Virus record (IMG/VR): IMGVR_UViG_3300032298_000540
Location: 1-64,000 of that record
Source of the DNA: a virus
Length of the DNA stretch: 64,000 nt
Strand: one strand, 5' to 3'
Shown: positions 1-4,980 of the stretch, piece after piece
Position numbering within the stretch: the stretch's first letter is position 1
Layout of the letters: each line of letters begins with the position of its first letter
Notes under the pieces: model-generated
Told to the model about the DNA's origin: nothing
Seen by the model: only the letters and a program-made list of their open reading frames with translations
The model's database searches: none
Made by a program: the position numbers and the translations under genes

Positions 1-25
1 AGGTTAAGAATTGATTAAGTATATA

Positions 26-53
26 GGGTAGTTTAATGTCATACCCAGGACAC
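26..53 (-). ncRNA. Putative H-type pseudoknot RNA element, copy A
   Basis: Minus strand reads GUGUC-CUGGGUAU-GACAU-UAAAC-UACCC; stem 1 GUGUC/GACAU, stem 2 GGGUA/UACCC; covaries with copy B at 823-851. Confidence 0.6.
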
Positions 54-59
54 TTACTT

Positions 60-371
60 CTATACTTCTGAATAGTTTATCTTTTCAGACTTGAAATCTA
101 CACTGTAGATCATGTCTGCATTCGTTGGATCCTCATAGCCGGAGACATCTATTGGATCGATGTCTGGATAGTAGACAGGATAATCGATACGAATATCCAT
201 AAGCATAGCGTCATACTTCTTAGTCATCTTGACCCAGTCTTCTGACAACCACGTGAGTGCGTGTTGTTTGTTGATCAGAAAGACTGATCGATCTTGCCAG
301 ATCTCATTGATCTTGATCCTGTACTCGATGACGGCACCGAAGAGGGTACCGCCTACGTCTGTAGTAGTCAT
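60..371 (-). CDS. Hypothetical early protein
   Basis: 103-aa ORF in co-oriented small-gene cluster. Confidence 0.7.
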   Translation of the reverse strand: MTTTDVGGTLFGAVIEYRIKINEIWQDRSVFLINKQHALTWLSEDWVKMTKKYDAMLMDIRIDYPVYYPDIDPIDVSGYEDPTNADMIYSVDFKSEKINYSEV

Positions 372-436
372 GGTGGGAAGGGAGGGGATAGTAGTAATGT
401 AGTAGATGGTGAGTGATCAGTGCAGTAAATGACGGA

Positions 437-802
437 CTACTTTATGTATAGGTAGCCGCCTGCCCAATCAGCTTGCTCTAGACATTCTGCATAAGATGCA
501 TCGTCTAGTAAGTTGTATCTTACATGTTTAGCAGGTGCTCGATAACCTGCTGGTTTGTAGATAGCACCTGTTTGTCTGCAGACAAAAGCATGGACTGATT
601 TACCGGTAACCAATCCGATTGAATAGGTTACTTGCATGATCTTATAGTATTTAGTACCTTTGTTAAGTTCAAAGGACATGCAACCGTATCTTTTAGGATA
701 GGCTTTCTCAAAGCTACGGATTAGCTTGGAGATAAGACCGTCGATACGATCTTCTATTGTCTTAGTAGTCTTCTCGAGACTTGTTGTAGATGCGATGACC
801 AT
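437..802 (-). CDS. Conserved phage hypothetical protein
   Basis: Motif KYYKI...SVHAFV...TGAIYKPA...APAKHVRYNLLD...ADWAGGYLY, recalled from other cyanophages. Confidence 0.8.
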   Translation of the reverse strand: MVIASTTSLEKTTKTIEDRIDGLISKLIRSFEKAYPKRYGCMSFELNKGTKYYKIMQVTYSIGLVTGKSVHAFVCRQTGAIYKPAGYRAPAKHVRYNLLDDASYAECLEQADWAGGYLYIK

Positions 803-822
803 TAGTTGATTGCGATGGAATG

Positions 823-851
823 TAAGCAGTTTAATGTCATGCTTAGGACAT
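823..851 (-). ncRNA. Putative H-type pseudoknot RNA element, copy B
   Basis: Minus strand reads AUGUC-CUAAGCAU-GACAU-UAAAC-UGCUUA; stem 2 UAAGCA/UGCUUA replaces GGGUA/UACCC of copy A (compensatory changes). Confidence 0.6.
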
Positions 852-856
852 GTGAT

Positions 857-1144
857 TTAAGAATGCAATAGCTTTGAGTGAGCTCTTGCTATCTCATACA
901 TTTCATTAGCTGTTACCGGTGGTTCACCCCCAGTATTGTCATATAGATATTGAGGAGTTGGATCATAGTCGATTTCATTCTCTAGCAAAGGAATGATCTC
1001 CTCTTCTAGTAGTGCAAGGAAGGAGAGAGTTAGGTCAGCGCATTCCATTGGGCGCTTGTTCTCCCTTGCTACAACTTCGTTCAGTTCTTTGAGGATTCGT
1101 TTGAGTACTGTGTACTCATTGATGCGTCTTGGAGTGGTAGTCAT
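857..1144 (-). CDS. Hypothetical early protein
   Basis: 95-aa ORF, C-terminal YDPTP...GGEPPVT motif. Confidence 0.7.
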   Translation of the reverse strand: MTTTPRRINEYTVLKRILKELNEVVARENKRPMECADLTLSFLALLEEEIIPLLENEIDYDPTPQYLYDNTGGEPPVTANEMYEIARAHSKLLHS

Positions 1145-1173
1145 GTTAGGAAGAGATTAAGGTTTGATTAAGT

Positions 1174-1209
1174 ACCTGGGACTTACCCCATGGTGATGGG
1201 TGCCCAGGT
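1174..1209 (-). ncRNA. Intergenic stem-loop with asymmetric internal loop
   Basis: Minus strand ACCUGGG-CA-CCCAU-CACC-AUGGG-GUAAGU-CCCAGGU. Confidence 0.4.
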
Positions 1210-1213
1210 TTAG

Positions 1214-1576
1214 TTATACCAGGCTAAGTATCTTTAGCCAGCTATCAGGATGATCAGGTTCTACTTCGTCACCTGCTGGGGTATAGCAGGTGTCGTCGAA
1301 CGTGTACTCTTCGATGTCTTCAAGCGTTGGCACGTCGTACCACCCTTGGAGCTCGTCTTTCTCTTCGGAGGTGTAGTTGTCTCCTGCTGGAATCCAGTAG
1401 CAGCGGAGGGTACCGTGCTTATCTTTACGGACGTTCCCTGTACAGGGGATTGCTCCTTTAGAAGGAGGGGTCGGGAAGTCAACATCGGCTGGGTACTGAG
1501 CAGTACCTTCGTCACCGTCAAGGGCGACGTAACCGATTGCTGTTGCGATTTGCTGTTGCTCTGGAAGTAATGCCAT
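1214..1576 (-). CDS. Phage hypothetical protein
   Basis: 120-aa acidic ORF ending in FDDTC.TPAGDEVEPDHPDSWL. Confidence 0.75.
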   Translation of the reverse strand: MALLPEQQQIATAIGYVALDGDEGTAQYPADVDFPTPPSKGAIPCTGNVRKDKHGTLRCYWIPAGDNYTSEEKDELQGWYDVPTLEDIEEYTFDDTCYTPAGDEVEPDHPDSWLKILSLV

Positions 1577-1668
1577 GTTTCTAGGATGAGTTGAAATAGT
1601 AGTGTGAATAGGATTGAGACGATGGTAATGCTGATGACTATTACGTCATCTTCTCTTGAGTTGTTCAT
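1261..1668 (-). CDS. Possible overlapping membrane-anchored protein
   Basis: N-terminal hydrophobic helix lies in the non-overlapped part; start overlaps the end of 1646-1858; S/T/K-rich tail overlaps 1214-1576. Confidence 0.4.
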   Translation of the reverse strand: MNNSREDDVIVISITIVSILFTLLFQLILETWHYFQSNSKSQQQSVTSPLTVTKVLLSTQPMLTSRPLLLKEQSPVQGTSVKISTVPSAATGFQQETTTPPKRKTSSKGGTTCQRLKTSKSTRSTTPAIPQQVTK

Positions 1669-1858
1669 GTTGTGTTGGAGTCAAGGGTGTGGTTATATCA
1701 GAGCCTAACCCTGCTGTTATGACAATAGCCATCACAGCAGCGGCTCCGATGAATGTAATGATATTTAATATGGTTAGCTTTAACTGTTTAATATCTTTAC
1801 TGCGACGATACGTGTCTAGTTCCACGTACCTGCCGCAGATCTTGTGAGTGTTCTTCAT
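1646..1858 (-). CDS. Small membrane protein
   Basis: 70 aa with one hydrophobic segment (ILNIITFIGAAAVMAIVITAGL). Confidence 0.65.
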   Translation of the reverse strand: MKNTHKICGRYVELDTYRRSKDIKQLKLTILNIITFIGAAAVMAIVITAGLGSDITTPLTPTQHEQLKRR

Positions 1859-1885
1859 AGTAATGATGCAATAGGTTTCTGATGT

Positions 1886-1958
1886 GGACTCATCAGGGCA
1901 GTAATTAACTGCCGACTAAGTTACAACATCGTTATAATGTTATAACTTAGTTTCGTCC
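1886..1958 (-). ncRNA. Hammerhead ribozyme, type II
   Basis: Minus strand GGAC-GAAA-[stem III CUAAGUUAUAACAU/AUGUUGUAACUUAG]-UC-[stem I GGCAGU/ACUGCC, loop UAAUU]-CUGAUGA-GUCC; complete core CUGAUGA/GAAA/GUC; predicted cut between 1914 and 1913. Confidence 0.93.
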
Positions 1959-1960
1959 TG

Positions 1961-2161
1961 TTAGTTAAGGTGCTTCTTATCAACGCAGTACCATGCATCA
2001 CCCTGGAACAGGTGAAGATAGACTAGTTGACGATTAGGTGTACGCCAGCAGTTATCAATAGCCTGTGCATTAATCATTTTCTGGCCTACCACTGATAGTG
2101 CCATGCCAAGACCAGTGCCTATGATAACGGCTAGTACAGGACTTAATAGTGAGTTGTTCAT
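1961..2161 (-). CDS. Small membrane-anchored protein
   Basis: 66 aa, N-terminal TM helix, Cys pair downstream. Confidence 0.65.
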   Translation of the reverse strand: MNNSLLSPVLAVIIGTGLGMALSVVGQKMINAQAIDNCWRTPNRQLVYLHLFQGDAWYCVDKKHLN

Positions 2162-2172
2162 TGAGTTAGTGT

Positions 2173-2249
2173 TGTGCGGTACCCATCTCCGCTAAGGGTA
2201 ATAACTGCCGGTGGGTTTGCACCACCGGACCCGCTTGTACGGATCAGCC
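2173..2249 (-). ncRNA. Structured RNA repeat copy 1 (three-way junction with T-loop-like hairpin plus possible pseudoknot)
   Basis: 57/64 nt identical to 2476-2539; differences keep base pairing in the stems. Confidence 0.65.
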
Positions 2250-2462
2250 GTAGTTCTCTGGAAGCTCTACAAGCTCCGCAAGAACTTGGTGTTGCAGCTC
2301 GCGTTCGCCAGCAATCTTAAGACCCCATGCGGCGATCTCAAGTGCTTGCTCACGGCTTAGTAGCTGCGAGTGGCCTGACTCCATCCAATACTGGATGGTG
2401 TCGTAGGCTTTAGCCGCTAGCTCTTCCCTGGTAGGAAGTGTAGCTGTAGTAGCGTTGGTCAC
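2244..2462 (-). CDS. Hypothetical early protein (GTG start)
   Basis: In frame with ORF 2244-2528; GGAG Shine-Dalgarno 6 nt before the GTG at 2462. Confidence 0.7.
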   Translation of the reverse strand: MTNATTATLPTREELAAKAYDTIQYWMESGHSQLLSREQALEIAAWGLKIAGERELQHQVLAELVELPENYG

Positions 2463-2475
2463 GGTGTTCTCCGTG

Positions 2476-2552
2476 TGTGCGGTACCCATCTCCGCTGGAG
2501 GTAATTGTTGCCGGTGGGTTTGCACCACCGGACTCGCTTAGACGAATCAACT
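2476..2552 (-). ncRNA. Structured RNA repeat copy 2
   Basis: Minus strand GUUG-AUUCG(UCUAAG)CGAGU-CCGGUGG(UGCAAAC)CCACCGG-CAAC-AAUUACCUCCAGCGGAGAUGGGUACCGC. Confidence 0.65.
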
Positions 2553-2683
2553 TACAACCCAACATTCGTTTGAGAACGAAAGCATGCGATTCTAGCACGA
2601 CCTAATCTATAAACGTTAAGAAAACGTTAAGATCATAGGTTATACTAGGTAGGCGCGGGCCCTTACGGTTACTTACGCCTATC

Positions 2684-2798
2684 AACGTAGTAAACTAAGG
2701 TAACTTCCTAACGTAGTAAGATCTCTTAACCACTTAACGTAGTCAGATCTCTTAACTTACTAACGGAGTTAACCTTCCCTTACTCTCAACAACGTAGT
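2684..2798. repeat. Iteron-like direct repeats AACG(T/G)AGT with 26-bp period
   Basis: Copies at 2684, 2710, 2736, 2762 and 2791; two extend to AACGTAGT(A/C)AGATCTCTTAAC. Confidence 0.75.
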
Positions 2799-3004
2799 CA
2801 GGAAACACCTCACCTCACCAACACGCTCGCTACATGGCGCATCTCACACAACATATACACACCCATACCCCCTATTCTTTTTTTTCTTCCCACATTCCAC
2901 TTCGCGTGGGTGGGTGGAGAACAGTAACGAAATTTTTACCCTAATTAGGCCCCTTTATAGTGTTTTTAGTATGTAAAATCCCTAATTAGCCCAAAAATAC
3001 AGAC

Positions 3005-3028
3005 AAAAAAACCGGGTTTAAGCCCGGT
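3005..3028 (-). terminator. Rho-independent terminator
   Basis: Minus strand ACCGGG-CTTAAA-CCCGGT followed by a T-tract, downstream of 3049-3276. Confidence 0.65.
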
Positions 3029-3048
3029 GGTTTAACTTTTATTTGAAA

Positions 3049-3276
3049 TCAGTCAACAATAGGATCTGTCGCCTGTTGTCTTTTATATTCTAACGCAAGA
3101 GCCTTAGATTTTCTAAATTGATCTTCTTCTGGTATCGCATAAGCAAGCCCTTTTTTCGCTTCTGTTACAAAATCACGTACTTCAAATGCATCAGCACCGG
3201 TACTAGCAATATTTAATGCTTTTTTTTGGATGCTTTGCAACCCTTTGATTCTTGCTAGCCTGGCTTCTGGGTTCAT
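3049..3276 (-). CDS. Hypothetical protein
   Basis: 75-aa ORF followed by terminator. Confidence 0.65.
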   Translation of the reverse strand: MNPEARLARIKGLQSIQKKALNIASTGADAFEVRDFVTEAKKGLAYAIPEEDQFRKSKALALEYKRQQATDPIVD

Positions 3277-3366
3277 TTATGGTTAAACTTGTTTTATTAT
3301 TTTACTATAACCTAGATTATCAACATTAGAATATTTACAGAACAAAAATAAAGACAATAAATCTAA

Positions 3367-4980
3367 ATGGCTCTTTCTCCAACTGATTTCTACGCATATA
3401 GTCGTGCTACTGGAACACCATTCCCAGAAGATCCAGAAGAAAGGGCACAGATGGCACCTGAGGTGCTTGAATTCAAGCGTAATCAGCTTAAAGCACCAGA
3501 ACAAGGTCCTAATTATGGCGCTATTGCAGGACTTACTGCTGCAGGATTAGGTCTTGCTGCTGGAGGACTAGGTTTATCTCGTTTATTTAGAAAAAGTGCT
3601 CCTCGAGCTACTGCTCAAAGTAATATAGATCTTGCTACAAGAGCATCTCAACCAGTTACAACAATTAGTAAAATAGATCTTCCTGTAGTACAACCGTCTA
3701 AAGTTGTAGTAGAACCTAAATCATTTACTAAAAATTATTTGGATGAAGTATTAGAAGAAGCAGATGCAAAAGTTGGTGCACTAACTGAATCAGAAAAGAC
3801 TATTGAATCCAAACCATTTAATTTAACGTATATTGAAACAACCGGAGCAAAAGCACCAGATCTTACATCAATACAACAATCTCAATTACCTGTGATTTCT
3901 GCACAGCAAAGAGCTGCTATTGAATCAGGAGAAGATCAAATAACAGGTCGAATAAAACATCGCTTACAACAAGATGAAGATTTAGATACAAGTCAAGTAG
4001 AAGTAATGGAAGGGATGGCACAGGAACAATATCGTATTGGCATGGAACAGAAAGATCCAATTGTTTCTTCACAAGAATTTGTAGATTTAGCAAAACAAGA
4101 AATGATTAATAGAAGGCAAGCAGTTCAAGCAAGTGGGTTACGTCCAGGTACAGAAAGATTTGAACGTGCTCTTGCACAATCTTTTGTAACTAAATCTATA
4201 CCAGGAGCAGAACCAGGAACTGTTAATTTTAGAAATTTGCAAGACTTAAATAAAATTGATATTTCATTACCTTCCACGATACGTAGAGCAGTTGATATTG
4301 TTGAAGAGACAGGTCCAGAAGAAGCTCTTGAACCAAAGAAATTACGCGCCGTATTGAACGTTGGTCCACTAGCAGAAATTACTACAACAGCAATGGGAGG
4401 TGCAATACGTGGTGCATCGCCGCTTTATCATGAAGCGTTACCTAAACAAAGTCAACGACAGATTTTTGGAACACCTGATGTTTTAGTGCGGGGAGCGCCT
4501 GATGAATTAACTTCTGATATACCAGGTAGACAGCGGTTATCTAGTGCGTTGTCTGCTGATATTCCTGCAGAAGAACTTTCTAAACAAGAAATTCAATATG
4601 GTTTTTTAAATGAAACTCCTATTGCAACACCTAAAGGAGGAAGCGCTGGTATAGGATTATATGGAATAGAGCCTAGATATGTTCCTGGTGCAATGAGTAA
4701 AGTTACAGGAGAGTATTCTGAAAAAGCAAGTCAAAGACCTAGTTATGTTCCTGGTTGGCTTTTAAGGCGAGAGGAAACTCCTTTTTCTAATGTTTCAAAT
4801 GAAGGGCTTCAACGAGCATTGGAAAAGTCAGGTTCAACGGGAGCACGTTCTATTACCAAAGAAATAGAACGACGCGAAAAAGGAAATAAAAGTTTAATAG
4901 TAAGTGAGGCATTACGTAGAGCTAAGATTGAAGGACGTGATCCACAAATGATTCTTAAACAATTAGGTATAGGTATTTAA
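3367..4980 (+). CDS. Hypothetical virion-associated protein
   Basis: 537 aa, first gene of rightward module, Gly/Ala hydrophobic segment near N-terminus. Confidence 0.75.
   Translation: MALSPTDFYAYSRATGTPFPEDPEERAQMAPEVLEFKRNQLKAPEQGPNYGAIAGLTAAGLGLAAGGLGLSRLFRKSAPRATAQSNIDLATRASQPVTTISKIDLPVVQPSKVVVEPKSFTKNYLDEVLEEADAKVGALTESEKTIESKPFNLTYIETTGAKAPDLTSIQQSQLPVISAQQRAAIESGEDQITGRIKHRLQQDEDLDTSQVEVMEGMAQEQYRIGMEQKDPIVSSQEFVDLAKQEMINRRQAVQASGLRPGTERFERALAQSFVTKSIPGAEPGTVNFRNLQDLNKIDISLPSTIRRAVDIVEETGPEEALEPKKLRAVLNVGPLAEITTTAMGGAIRGASPLYHEALPKQSQRQIFGTPDVLVRGAPDELTSDIPGRQRLSSALSADIPAEELSKQEIQYGFLNETPIATPKGGSAGIGLYGIEPRYVPGAMSKVTGEYSEKASQRPSYVPGWLLRREETPFSNVSNEGLQRALEKSGSTGARSITKEIERREKGNKSLIVSEALRRAKIEGRDPQMILKQLGIGI

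Follow-up and report, generated by a model that had tools for sequence, protein, structure and literature searches.

Conserved intercistronic RNA modules, among them a type II hammerhead and a coremin-like pseudoknot, lie between genes in the early operon of an S-EIVl-like cyanophage

Introduction

In phage T7, RNase III sites are internal-loop hairpins between early genes, at which the early transcript is cut into gene units that are left with protective 3' hairpins. Type II hammerhead ribozymes, known since 2011, cluster around phage and prophage genes (Perreault et al. 2011, PMC3088659), and phage hammerheads have been proposed to cut long transcripts into gene-length mRNAs (PMC3088659). 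Within the tRNA punctuation model of organelle transcripts, tRNA-like folds are known as t-elements (PMC1920247). Coremin exonuclease-resistant RNAs (xrRNA_C) occupy the 3' UTRs of plant and other RNA viruses, and the coremin papers cited here do not mention bacterial or phage examples (PMC6546385, PMC10520033, PMC10321173). The genomes of cyanobacteria code for RNase E and RNase J, both of them essential (PMC8682795). Here we describe the RNA structures that lie between genes of a cyanophage early operon: a hammerhead of a kind already known since 2011, and three further motif families that are absent from Rfam.

Results

The window analysed is the first 64,000 nt of IMG/VR record IMGVR_UViG_3300032298_000540, the start of a circularly assembled 76.9-kb genome of a freshwater S-EIVl-like cyanophage; the leftward early/replication operon crosses the record start. 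A first-pass annotation had marked six RNA structures in this operon from the letters alone, and all six are real, on the minus (sense) strand and with coordinates exact or off by 1-2 nt. They are listed here with two neighbouring hairpins.

2476-2552, minus strand: three-way junction resembling the top half of a tRNA, with a D-arm-like knot, first copy, ahead of the first sizeable gene.
2460-2475, minus strand: hairpin in which the GGAG ribosome-binding site (2472-2469) of the first gene pairs with its GUG start codon (2462-2460).
2173-2249, minus strand: three-way junction, second copy, 86% identical to the first, with the UGA stop codon of the upstream gene (2246-2244) at the P1/P2 junction.
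1886-1958, minus strand: type II hammerhead ribozyme, with its core and three stems in order, found by descriptor scan.
1879-1896, minus strand: alternative 6-bp hairpin in the minimum-energy fold of the spacer, in which CUGAUG of the hammerhead core pairs with CAUCAG just past stem II.
1174-1209, minus strand: internal-loop hairpin, 4 nt past the stop codon UAA (1216-1214) and 29 nt before AUG 1144-1142.
823-850, minus strand: 28-nt H-type pseudoknot, coremin-like, 6 nt past the stop codon at 859-857 and 20 nt before AUG 802-800.
25-52, minus strand: second window copy of the 28-nt pseudoknot, 7 nt past the stop codon at 62-60, its AUG 31 nt further on, across the record start.

The proximity to stop codons claimed for the five downstream elements also held: the junction copy starting at 2249 contains its stop codon, and the others begin 2, 4, 6 and 7 nt past theirs. 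The five non-hammerhead elements proved to be conserved, strand-specific, covarying RNAs, packed between a stop codon and the following start, and structure is absent from some gaps, the spacer at 436-372 folding to 0 kcal/mol. Rfam, the check that the first-pass annotation had put forward, was searched both with the gathering cut-off on the window and by E-value on positions 1-3400. The window gave 0 gathering matches, with all four families (hammerhead, pseudoknot, internal-loop hairpin and three-way junction) below the gathering score, and the same search of 12 relatives returned true tRNAs only and no known ribozyme family. ARAGORN found neither tRNA nor tmRNA in the window. Matches in a promoter scan were no more numerous than expected by chance, none of them convincing upstream of 2552. 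Three metatranscriptomes, the only RNA runs that contain this DNA, match 6-15% of sampled words in low-depth contigs, as fragments inside single genes with neither usable ends nor joints at the elements, and these have no bearing either way on processing.

An exhaustive descriptor scan confirmed the claimed hammerhead as a complete type II ribozyme with the full core and three helices in the right order, beginning 2 nt past the UAA at 1963-1961. Stem II (1958-1955 with 1889-1886, 4 bp) is open and stems I (1913-1897, 6 bp) and III (hairpin 1950-1916, at least 12 bp) are closed, with GAAA at 1954-1951 and CUGAUGA at 1896-1890, so that the CUGANGA and GAAA motifs of the class are present together with its U-H cleavage dinucleotide and A15.1-U16.1 pair. 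The GUC cleavage triplet ends in the UC at 1915-1914; the cut is predicted between 1914 and 1913, and the predicted 3' product would carry a 55-nt leader up to AUG 1858-1856. The helices have covariation support, with two compensatory pairs in stem III in L115 and L116 (two of the loci compared), and the core and stem II are common to at least 77 distinct phage members of the family in IMG/VR, whose stems I and III differ. The best Rfam match was Hammerhead_3, at 20.9 bits and E = 0.46 against a cut-off of 48.5; a type III reading, prompted by this weak match in the search of 1-3400, was rejected, as its stems II and III are unpaired.

Most type II members have a pseudoknot of at least 4 bp between loop I and the 3' tail (PMC3088659), which is not obligatory for the class, and here no 4-bp complement was found within 14 nt of the tail. 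The alternative hairpin over the core is invariant in L115 and L116, and the exact CAUCAG tail recurs in 5 of the 77 family members; the hairpin may be an off-state. Because the ribozyme lacks the loop I/3'-tail pseudoknot and its core can be locked in this way, cutting is possibly slow or conditional. The element thus shares with the hammerheads of Perreault et al. (PMC3088659) its core and permutation, an intergenic position immediately ahead of a gene within a polycistronic phage unit, and the processing role proposed for it, and differs from them as a single copy that lacks the usual pseudoknot, scores below the Rfam gathering cut-off and carries a competing hairpin across the core.

This genome has nine copies of the 28-nt pseudoknot, and each of the 96 matches at 72 related loci is in sense orientation. 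Strong covariation among 53 distinct copies supports both stems: 94% of cells pair, compared with 21-51% for a shifted partner, and changes on both sides affect 59 cells. The first hairpin, YGUC/GACR, has 4 bp and is invariant in the 53 copies except for a covarying outer pair; its 8-nt loop consists of C, U, four variable bases, A and then usually Y. Stem 2 has 6 bp, is antiparallel and is paired in 91% of cases, with four of its pairs altered on both sides. In 46 of 82 copies, exactly 5 nt separate the stop codon from the knot, the commonest spacing, and the next AUG most often lies about 21 nt past the knot; in eight of the nine copies of this genome it follows at 19-22 nt, across leaders that are G-poor, unstructured and without a Shine-Dalgarno sequence. 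Readthrough of the stop codon across the knot was considered and discarded, since spacer lengths are not consistently in frame.

The invariant bases of the pseudoknot match those of the plant-virus coremin RNA (PMC6546385, PMC10321173). As in coremin/xrRNA_C (PMC6546385, PMC10520033, PMC10321173), a 4-bp first hairpin of the same sequence, within the coremin range of 3-5 bp and with a C-G pair closing its loop, is followed by a single-C first loop and a UUAAAC spacer, and the hairpin loop pairs with bases past the spacer. Coremin of the Watson-Crick type, likewise with a 1-nt first loop and an antiparallel stem 2 that joins the loop to bases past UUAAA, has the same knot topology and stalls both Xrn1 and ribosomes (PMC6546385, PMC10520033, PMC10321173). 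Agreement with the roughly 10-nt coremin spacer extends over its first 6-7 nt, the remainder being the variable 3' strand of stem 2, and the 8-nt loop does not match the coremin loop consensus (YGAD or YGNNAD). The unstructured leaders also lack, directly past the spacer, the second hairpin that coremin requires for Xrn1 stalling (PMC6546385, PMC10520033, PMC10321173). The cyanophage knot thus differs from coremin in its 8-nt loop, 6-bp second stem and missing second hairpin, in lying between genes of DNA phages and prokaryotes rather than in the 3' UTRs of RNA viruses, and in its candidate nuclease, which would be RNase J or RNase E and not Xrn1. The shared stem, 1-nt first loop and UUAAAC spacer give a concrete precedent to the first-pass suggestion of a fold that protects 5' ends.

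The pseudoknot motif ranges from this phage lineage to other IMG/VR phage contigs, Firmicutes, candidate-phyla bacteria and archaea. In Enterococcus and Bacillus it stands directly after a terminator and about 38-45 nt before the next Shine-Dalgarno-like GGAG, a placement that fits a protector of the 5' UTR and not a start-site element. In another phage subtype, the 3' strand of the knot contains AAGG 6 nt before the AUG.

The three-way junction was found in 58 distinct copies, in which P1, P2 and P3 meet without linkers. In P3 (7 bp), pairing reaches 99.6% and most positions show three to four Watson-Crick pair types; its 7-nt loop, U-G-C-A-A-A-C, is T-loop-like, with a canonical T-arm in some relatives, and with the 4-5 bp of P1, P3 would stack into 11-12 bp. 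The D-arm-like 3' part holds two further covarying helices, and the hairpin that pairs ribosome-binding site and start codon recurs, with covarying stems, after many junction copies in relatives. Since the upstream stop codon sits inside P1/P2 in 23 of 30 copies, terminating ribosomes must unfold the junction, and an RNase P cut at its 5' edge is unlikely because it would remove that stop codon. Like t-elements (PMC1920247), the junction has a tRNA-like fold that lacks the anticodon arm and separates coding regions within a polycistronic RNA; it differs from them in a lower stem of only 4-5 bp, the stop codon inside it, the D-arm-like knot that follows and a cleavage that is only putative. Tools that detect tRNAs also miss it, ARAGORN and the Rfam tRNA model recovering only the true tRNA-Leu genes of relatives.

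The internal-loop hairpin has a lower stem of 7 bp, above it a conserved internal loop of 2 x 6 nt, in which CA forms the 5' strand and GUAAGU the 3' strand, and at the top a hairpin that varies. Relatives hold 136 distinct sense-strand copies, a regular expression for the motif matched 154 times in sense against 11 in antisense, and the first P1 pair is G-C in 69 copies, U-A in 37 and A-U in 12. By-eye comparison with the kink-turn, sarcin-ricin and UAA/GAN motifs gave no reading of the internal loop that fits. Like the T7 RNase III sites, the element is an internal-loop hairpin between early genes. RNase III sites of the T7 type call for about two helical turns, mostly paired, whereas many copies have a 3-bp upper and a 6-8-bp lower stem, and the shortest, at about 10-11 bp, are too short for RNase III. 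The strict conservation of the loop sequence points to specific recognition. In relatives, the hairpin also lies 0-9 nt before tRNA-Leu; because it can directly precede a tRNA gene, it is not a translation signal.

Across relatives, the pseudoknot and the internal-loop hairpin substitute for each other upstream of orthologous genes, the small genes around the modules are highly mosaic, and strict motif scans find many orthologous gaps without any module, which makes the modules dispensable at any single gap. In other relatives, either plain hairpins or nothing precedes the ortholog of the gene after the hammerhead, and replacement of the hammerhead by a pseudoknot at this gap was accordingly rejected. 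Among about 70 related operons with hundreds of modules, a hammerhead is confined to this phage and the two relatives nearest to it. Each of the two motifs besides the knot is found in at least about 120 viral contigs. The cultured relative S-EIVl, which grows on Synechococcus PCCC-A2c, has three of the four module types.

Discussion

The three non-hammerhead RNAs, found hundreds of times in related phages, probably control the cutting, protection and translation of a long message. On the reading that we favour, with a probability of roughly one half, the leftward operon is one transcript that interchangeable cis-acting intercistronic processing and stability modules split into units. We infer each functional step of this scheme from modules that are present, conserved, strand-specific and covarying, placed between cistrons and exchanged by type. 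Modules in the gaps would give each unit its own ends, stability and translation. The hammerhead would cut itself: the long stem III hairpin, with its cyclic phosphate, would close the upstream piece, and the stem I hairpin, with its 5'-OH, would open the downstream one. The 28-nt knot would be a compact, mechanically stable fold of the coremin type; because it would lie just outside the footprints of terminating and initiating ribosomes, it could stay folded, and it would block 5'-to-3' decay, by RNase J or by RNase E scanning from the 5' end, before the next cistron. The three-way junction, mimicking the acceptor/T-arm half of a tRNA, may serve host tRNA-end enzymes as a substrate or give the upstream unit a tRNA-like 3' cap, with the D-arm-like knot and the hairpin that locks the ribosome-binding site at the head of the next, and the internal-loop hairpin may serve as a sequence-specific recognition or end-capping element. 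A bolder form of this reading, which we hold tentatively and would not yet call probable, takes the knot as a prokaryotic counterpart of the coremin xrRNA, a ligand-free roadblock to RNase J and scanning RNase E in many phages and bacteria. The knot, the tRNA-like junction and the internal-loop hairpin would then make up a modular, exchangeable punctuation system of phage polycistronic mRNAs, with the hammerhead only as an occasional extra.

Clearly less plausible than the favoured reading, in our estimate, is that the non-hammerhead modules are translation devices, whether standby platforms, landing platforms or locks that determine how much the next, mostly Shine-Dalgarno-less, start is used, or elements that couple or uncouple neighbouring cistrons. 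Such a role would suit the nearly fixed distance from knot to AUG, the G-poor leaders, the GGAG/start-codon hairpin after many junction copies, the AAGG in the 3' strand of some knots, and the ability of coremin to block scanning ribosomes and stimulate frameshifting. However, in a compact genome a fold that need only avoid ribosome footprints would show such fixed distances just as well, many relatives express the orthologous genes with no module, and neither the hairpin directly before a tRNA gene nor the distant Firmicutes knot fits a start-site function.

We consider it improbable that the modules act mainly as DNA, as homology patches that shuffle accessory cassettes or as operators to which proteins bind, and fold as RNA only secondarily. 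T4-type phages offer a precedent in their promoter/stem-loop cassettes, and variable module presence, the swapping of types at orthologous gaps and the mosaic small genes agree with it. But the strand biases of 96:0, 66:0 and 154:11 speak for RNA, as do G-U pairs, which are A-C mismatches on the opposite strand, and compensatory changes that keep pairing and not sequence. Equally improbable is the idea that the pseudoknot, or the two competing D-arm-like helices, form a small-molecule, protein or temperature sensor that switches many early genes together. In topology, with an A-rich third loop, the knot is similar to preQ1-I and other small riboswitch aptamers, it has invariant loop bases, and the two covarying D-arm-like helices, which have no linker, are probably mutually exclusive on the geometry we deduce. 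Yet no riboswitch family was matched in Rfam, copies precede unrelated genes in unrelated hosts, archaea included, and coremin needs no ligand.

It is very improbable that any of the three motifs (pseudoknot, internal-loop hairpin, three-way junction) represents a self-cleaving ribozyme of a new class: they occupy the same type of gap as the hammerhead and have highly conserved unpaired nucleotides and no Rfam family, but a 28-nt knot with 4-bp and 6-bp stems leaves little room for an active site, its closest known relative is a passive roadblock, and no other ribozyme class reached the gathering score in 12 relatives. The first-pass case for such ribozymes was guilt by association, and it is not supported, because hammerheads and these motifs occur together in no more than three genomes, this phage and the two closest to it, among about 70 related operons, which leaves self-cleavage of the other elements unsupported; its genuine hammerhead and its conserved, strand-specific RNAs stand.

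The preferred reading, that intercistronic modules punctuate the early message, would have consequences beyond this operon. Exonuclease resistance is a known property of certain RNAs of eukaryotic RNA viruses; the knot would be a very small, portable mRNA-stabilising part of 28 nt and, if the bolder reading is true, a prokaryotic counterpart of such RNAs. It would also show how phages shield their early messages in hosts that depend on RNase E and RNase J. Because widespread motifs of this kind are absent from Rfam, a whole layer of probable gene control in phages escapes standard annotation, and because S-EIVl, a cultured phage, has three of the four module types, the question lends itself to direct testing.

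An early operon punctuated by exchangeable RNA modules

The IMG/VR virus record is 76,874 bp long, the window being its first 64 kb, and because the 123-nt terminal repeat shared by the record ends is an assembly overlap, the genome is effectively circular. Among its relatives only one has a name, Synechococcus phage S-EIVl, which comes from an Arctic lake. From a start near 2600, an operon on the minus strand runs over the record start as far as about 58.4 kb. Its first genes are numerous, small and of unknown function; later ones encode a PcfJ-like protein, GP88, a family A DNA polymerase and SSB, the composition of an early and replication module. Using the 120-aa product of 1214-1576 as query, we gathered 70 related loci by protein search, all with the operon on the plus strand. 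The first-pass annotation had placed RNA structures at gene boundaries in this operon, which we confirm and extend, finding conserved modules in relatives and beyond. In every gap with a structure, a single module precedes a short, G-poor leader:

2552-2476 and 2249-2173, minus strand: three-way junction
1958-1886, minus strand: hammerhead, comprising stem II 5' strand, GAAA, 12-bp stem III hairpin, GUC, 6-bp stem I hairpin, CUGAUGA and stem II 3' strand
1209-1174, minus strand: internal-loop hairpin, in which a loop of CA facing GUAAGU separates a 7-bp lower stem from an upper hairpin that varies
850-823 and 52-25, minus strand: 28-nt pseudoknot ('knot')

Several other features accompany the operon. 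The divergent intergenic region (2660-2800 and 3011-3028) carries repeated AACGUAGU-like words and closes with a terminator-like, bidirectional hairpin flanked by U/A tracts. A 135-codon open frame at 1261-1668 (minus strand), with membrane-helix-like first 30 residues, overlaps the conserved 120-aa gene at 1214-1576 in another frame and may reflect chance or a short gene that ends early. Beyond the window, the same operon has long gaps of 209 and 178 nt (76325-76533 and 70689-70866 of the whole record) with several stable hairpins and folding energies of -63.5 and -48.8 kcal/mol; these may hold internal promoters or further RNA elements.

A compact pseudoknot between stop and start codons

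This genome has nine copies of the knot, including those at 850-823 and 52-25; all lie between genes on the minus strand. A pattern without the stem 2 constraint gave 96 matches in 72 sources, all on the sense strand. In 53 distinct copies, the model (4-bp stem 1, one-base loop, 6-bp stem 2, one-base junction, six-base A-rich loop) is paired in 94% of cells, compared with 21-51% in slid controls, with both-side changes at five pairs; its G-U pairs become mismatches if read on the opposite strand. In 46 of 82 cases the knot begins exactly 5 nt downstream of the stop codon of a long open frame. Eight of the nine copies here have the next AUG 19-22 nt further on, and in relatives this interval is 21-22 or 27-28 nt; these would be the shortest distances that keep the fold clear of both terminating and initiating ribosomes. 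Leaders 3' of knots have a loose CCAUUGCAAUUCAAC-like pattern in common.

The motif extends far beyond the S-EIVl lineage: stem 2 is present in 97 of 132 IMG/VR pattern matches and in 51 of 124 from bacterial and archaeal genomes, against about 3% by chance. In Enterococcus and Bacillus (L194, L195, L197, L199), the knot lies immediately 3' of an intrinsic terminator, with the next Shine-Dalgarno-like GGAG about 38-45 nt downstream. A separate subtype among IMG/VR matches (for example, contigs L011, L023, L040 and L059) has the spacer UUAAAAGG and an AUG 6 nt after the knot, so that the 3' strand of stem 2 would contain the ribosome-binding site.

The closest known structure is coremin (xrRNA_C), a plant-virus exonuclease-resistant RNA motif that stalls Xrn1, blocks scanning ribosomes and stimulates frameshifting; the three papers cited for it here (PMC6546385, PMC10520033, PMC10321173) make no mention of bacteria, phages or RNase J. 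The published 20-nt form shares its stem, its single C and the UUAAAC of its spacer with the phage knot, and in a Watson-Crick variant the loop pairs with bases 3' of the spacer. Because the phage knot has a different loop length and loop consensus and no second hairpin, we file it as coremin-like rather than as a member.

A tRNA-like junction and an internal-loop hairpin

The two junction copies in the window are 86% identical. We parsed 33 copies, and in these no linker separates P1, P2 and P3. P3, of 7 bp, is 99.6% paired and shows three to four Watson-Crick pair types at most of its positions; its 7-nt loop is T-loop-like, and a canonical tRNA T-arm occurs in other variants. Stacked, P1 and P3 would form 11-12 bp of acceptor/T-arm minihelix. 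The 3' part is D-arm-like, with a 4-bp stem and a 9-nt loop that contains GG and pairs, in addition, with five upstream bases. Covariation is seen in both helices (97% paired, 42 double-change cells), and we think that they alternate rather than coexist because no base separates their two 3' strands. After many copies comes a hairpin in which GGAG pairs with the start codon (here 2475-2460). At least 119 viral contigs contain the 19-base core.

In 23 of 30 copies, the upstream gene stops at a UGA located where P1 meets P2, the open frame ending there having a median of 75 codons versus 6-9 in other frames; in the remaining seven, from relatives, the preceding frame is only 6-23 codons long. 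A 12-codon mini-ORF at 2547-2585 (minus strand; AUG 2585-2583), stopping at this UGA in the first junction, copies the arrangement of real genes that stop inside the junction.

The internal-loop hairpin has a second copy in this genome, beyond the window. With just the loop and the two G-C pairs beside it fixed, a regex matched 154 times in sense and 11 in antisense; the sense matches comprise 136 distinct copies. One pair further out, G-C occurs in 69, U-A in 37 and A-U in 12, and upper stems greatly exceed those of shuffled inserts in length. At least 120 viral contigs carry an exact 18-base version. The next AUG is usually found 31-34 nt past the anchor (the two C's after the internal loop). 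A role as a start-site element is ruled out because in many relatives the hairpin ends 0-9 nt 5' of a sense-strand tRNA-Leu(UAA) gene embedded in the operon (for example, L129:9947-10019 and L119:10645-10717), a gene absent from this genome and its two nearest relatives. At about 10-11 bp, the shortest copies are too small for RNase III. A 21-nt leader segment recurs at 1-21 and 1154-1174 (86% identical), each time between a module and the next AUG.

The hammerhead as a recent addition

The element at 1958-1886 is a type II permutation. No Rfam hammerhead model reached its cut-off there, and the sole listed match (20.9 bits) implies a type III form whose stems II and III do not pair. The core, stem I and stem II are unchanged in the two nearest relatives, which show 96% protein identity; stem III carries two compensatory changes there. 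When the core and stem II alone were fixed, a pattern matched 79 viral stretches. Parsing gave 77 distinct hammerheads whose stems I and III are unrelated and which usually have a ribosome-binding site 15-35 nt downstream; the window element therefore belongs to a large phage hammerhead family. Such phage hammerheads, and the idea that they cut transcripts into gene-length mRNAs, date from 2011 (PMC3088659). Two points are unusual: a loop I/tail pseudoknot is absent from the window copy, and six bases 3' of stem II can alternatively pair with CUGAUG of the core, a hairpin that replaces stem II in the minimum-energy fold.

Module exchange and its meaning

The orthologous large PcfJ-like gene is preceded by a knot in 37-38 relatives, by an internal-loop hairpin in one and by nothing in several, and similar swaps occur at two other genes; the hammerhead's gap holds plain hairpins or overlapping genes in other relatives. 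Among the 79 hammerhead-family loci, the knot and D-arm-like core occur only in contigs of the two nearest relatives. The three non-hammerhead modules therefore make up a kit of the S-EIVl lineage, to which the hammerhead was added recently, and the first-pass argument that the other modules are ribozymes by association is weakened.

Cyanobacteria encode both RNase E and RNase J, each essential (PMC8682795). The best available reading, based on placement, exchange between modules and analogy (coremin, the tRNA-like t-elements between organelle coding regions, and T7 RNase III sites) rather than on transcript ends, is that the modules would define separately stable, separately translated units.
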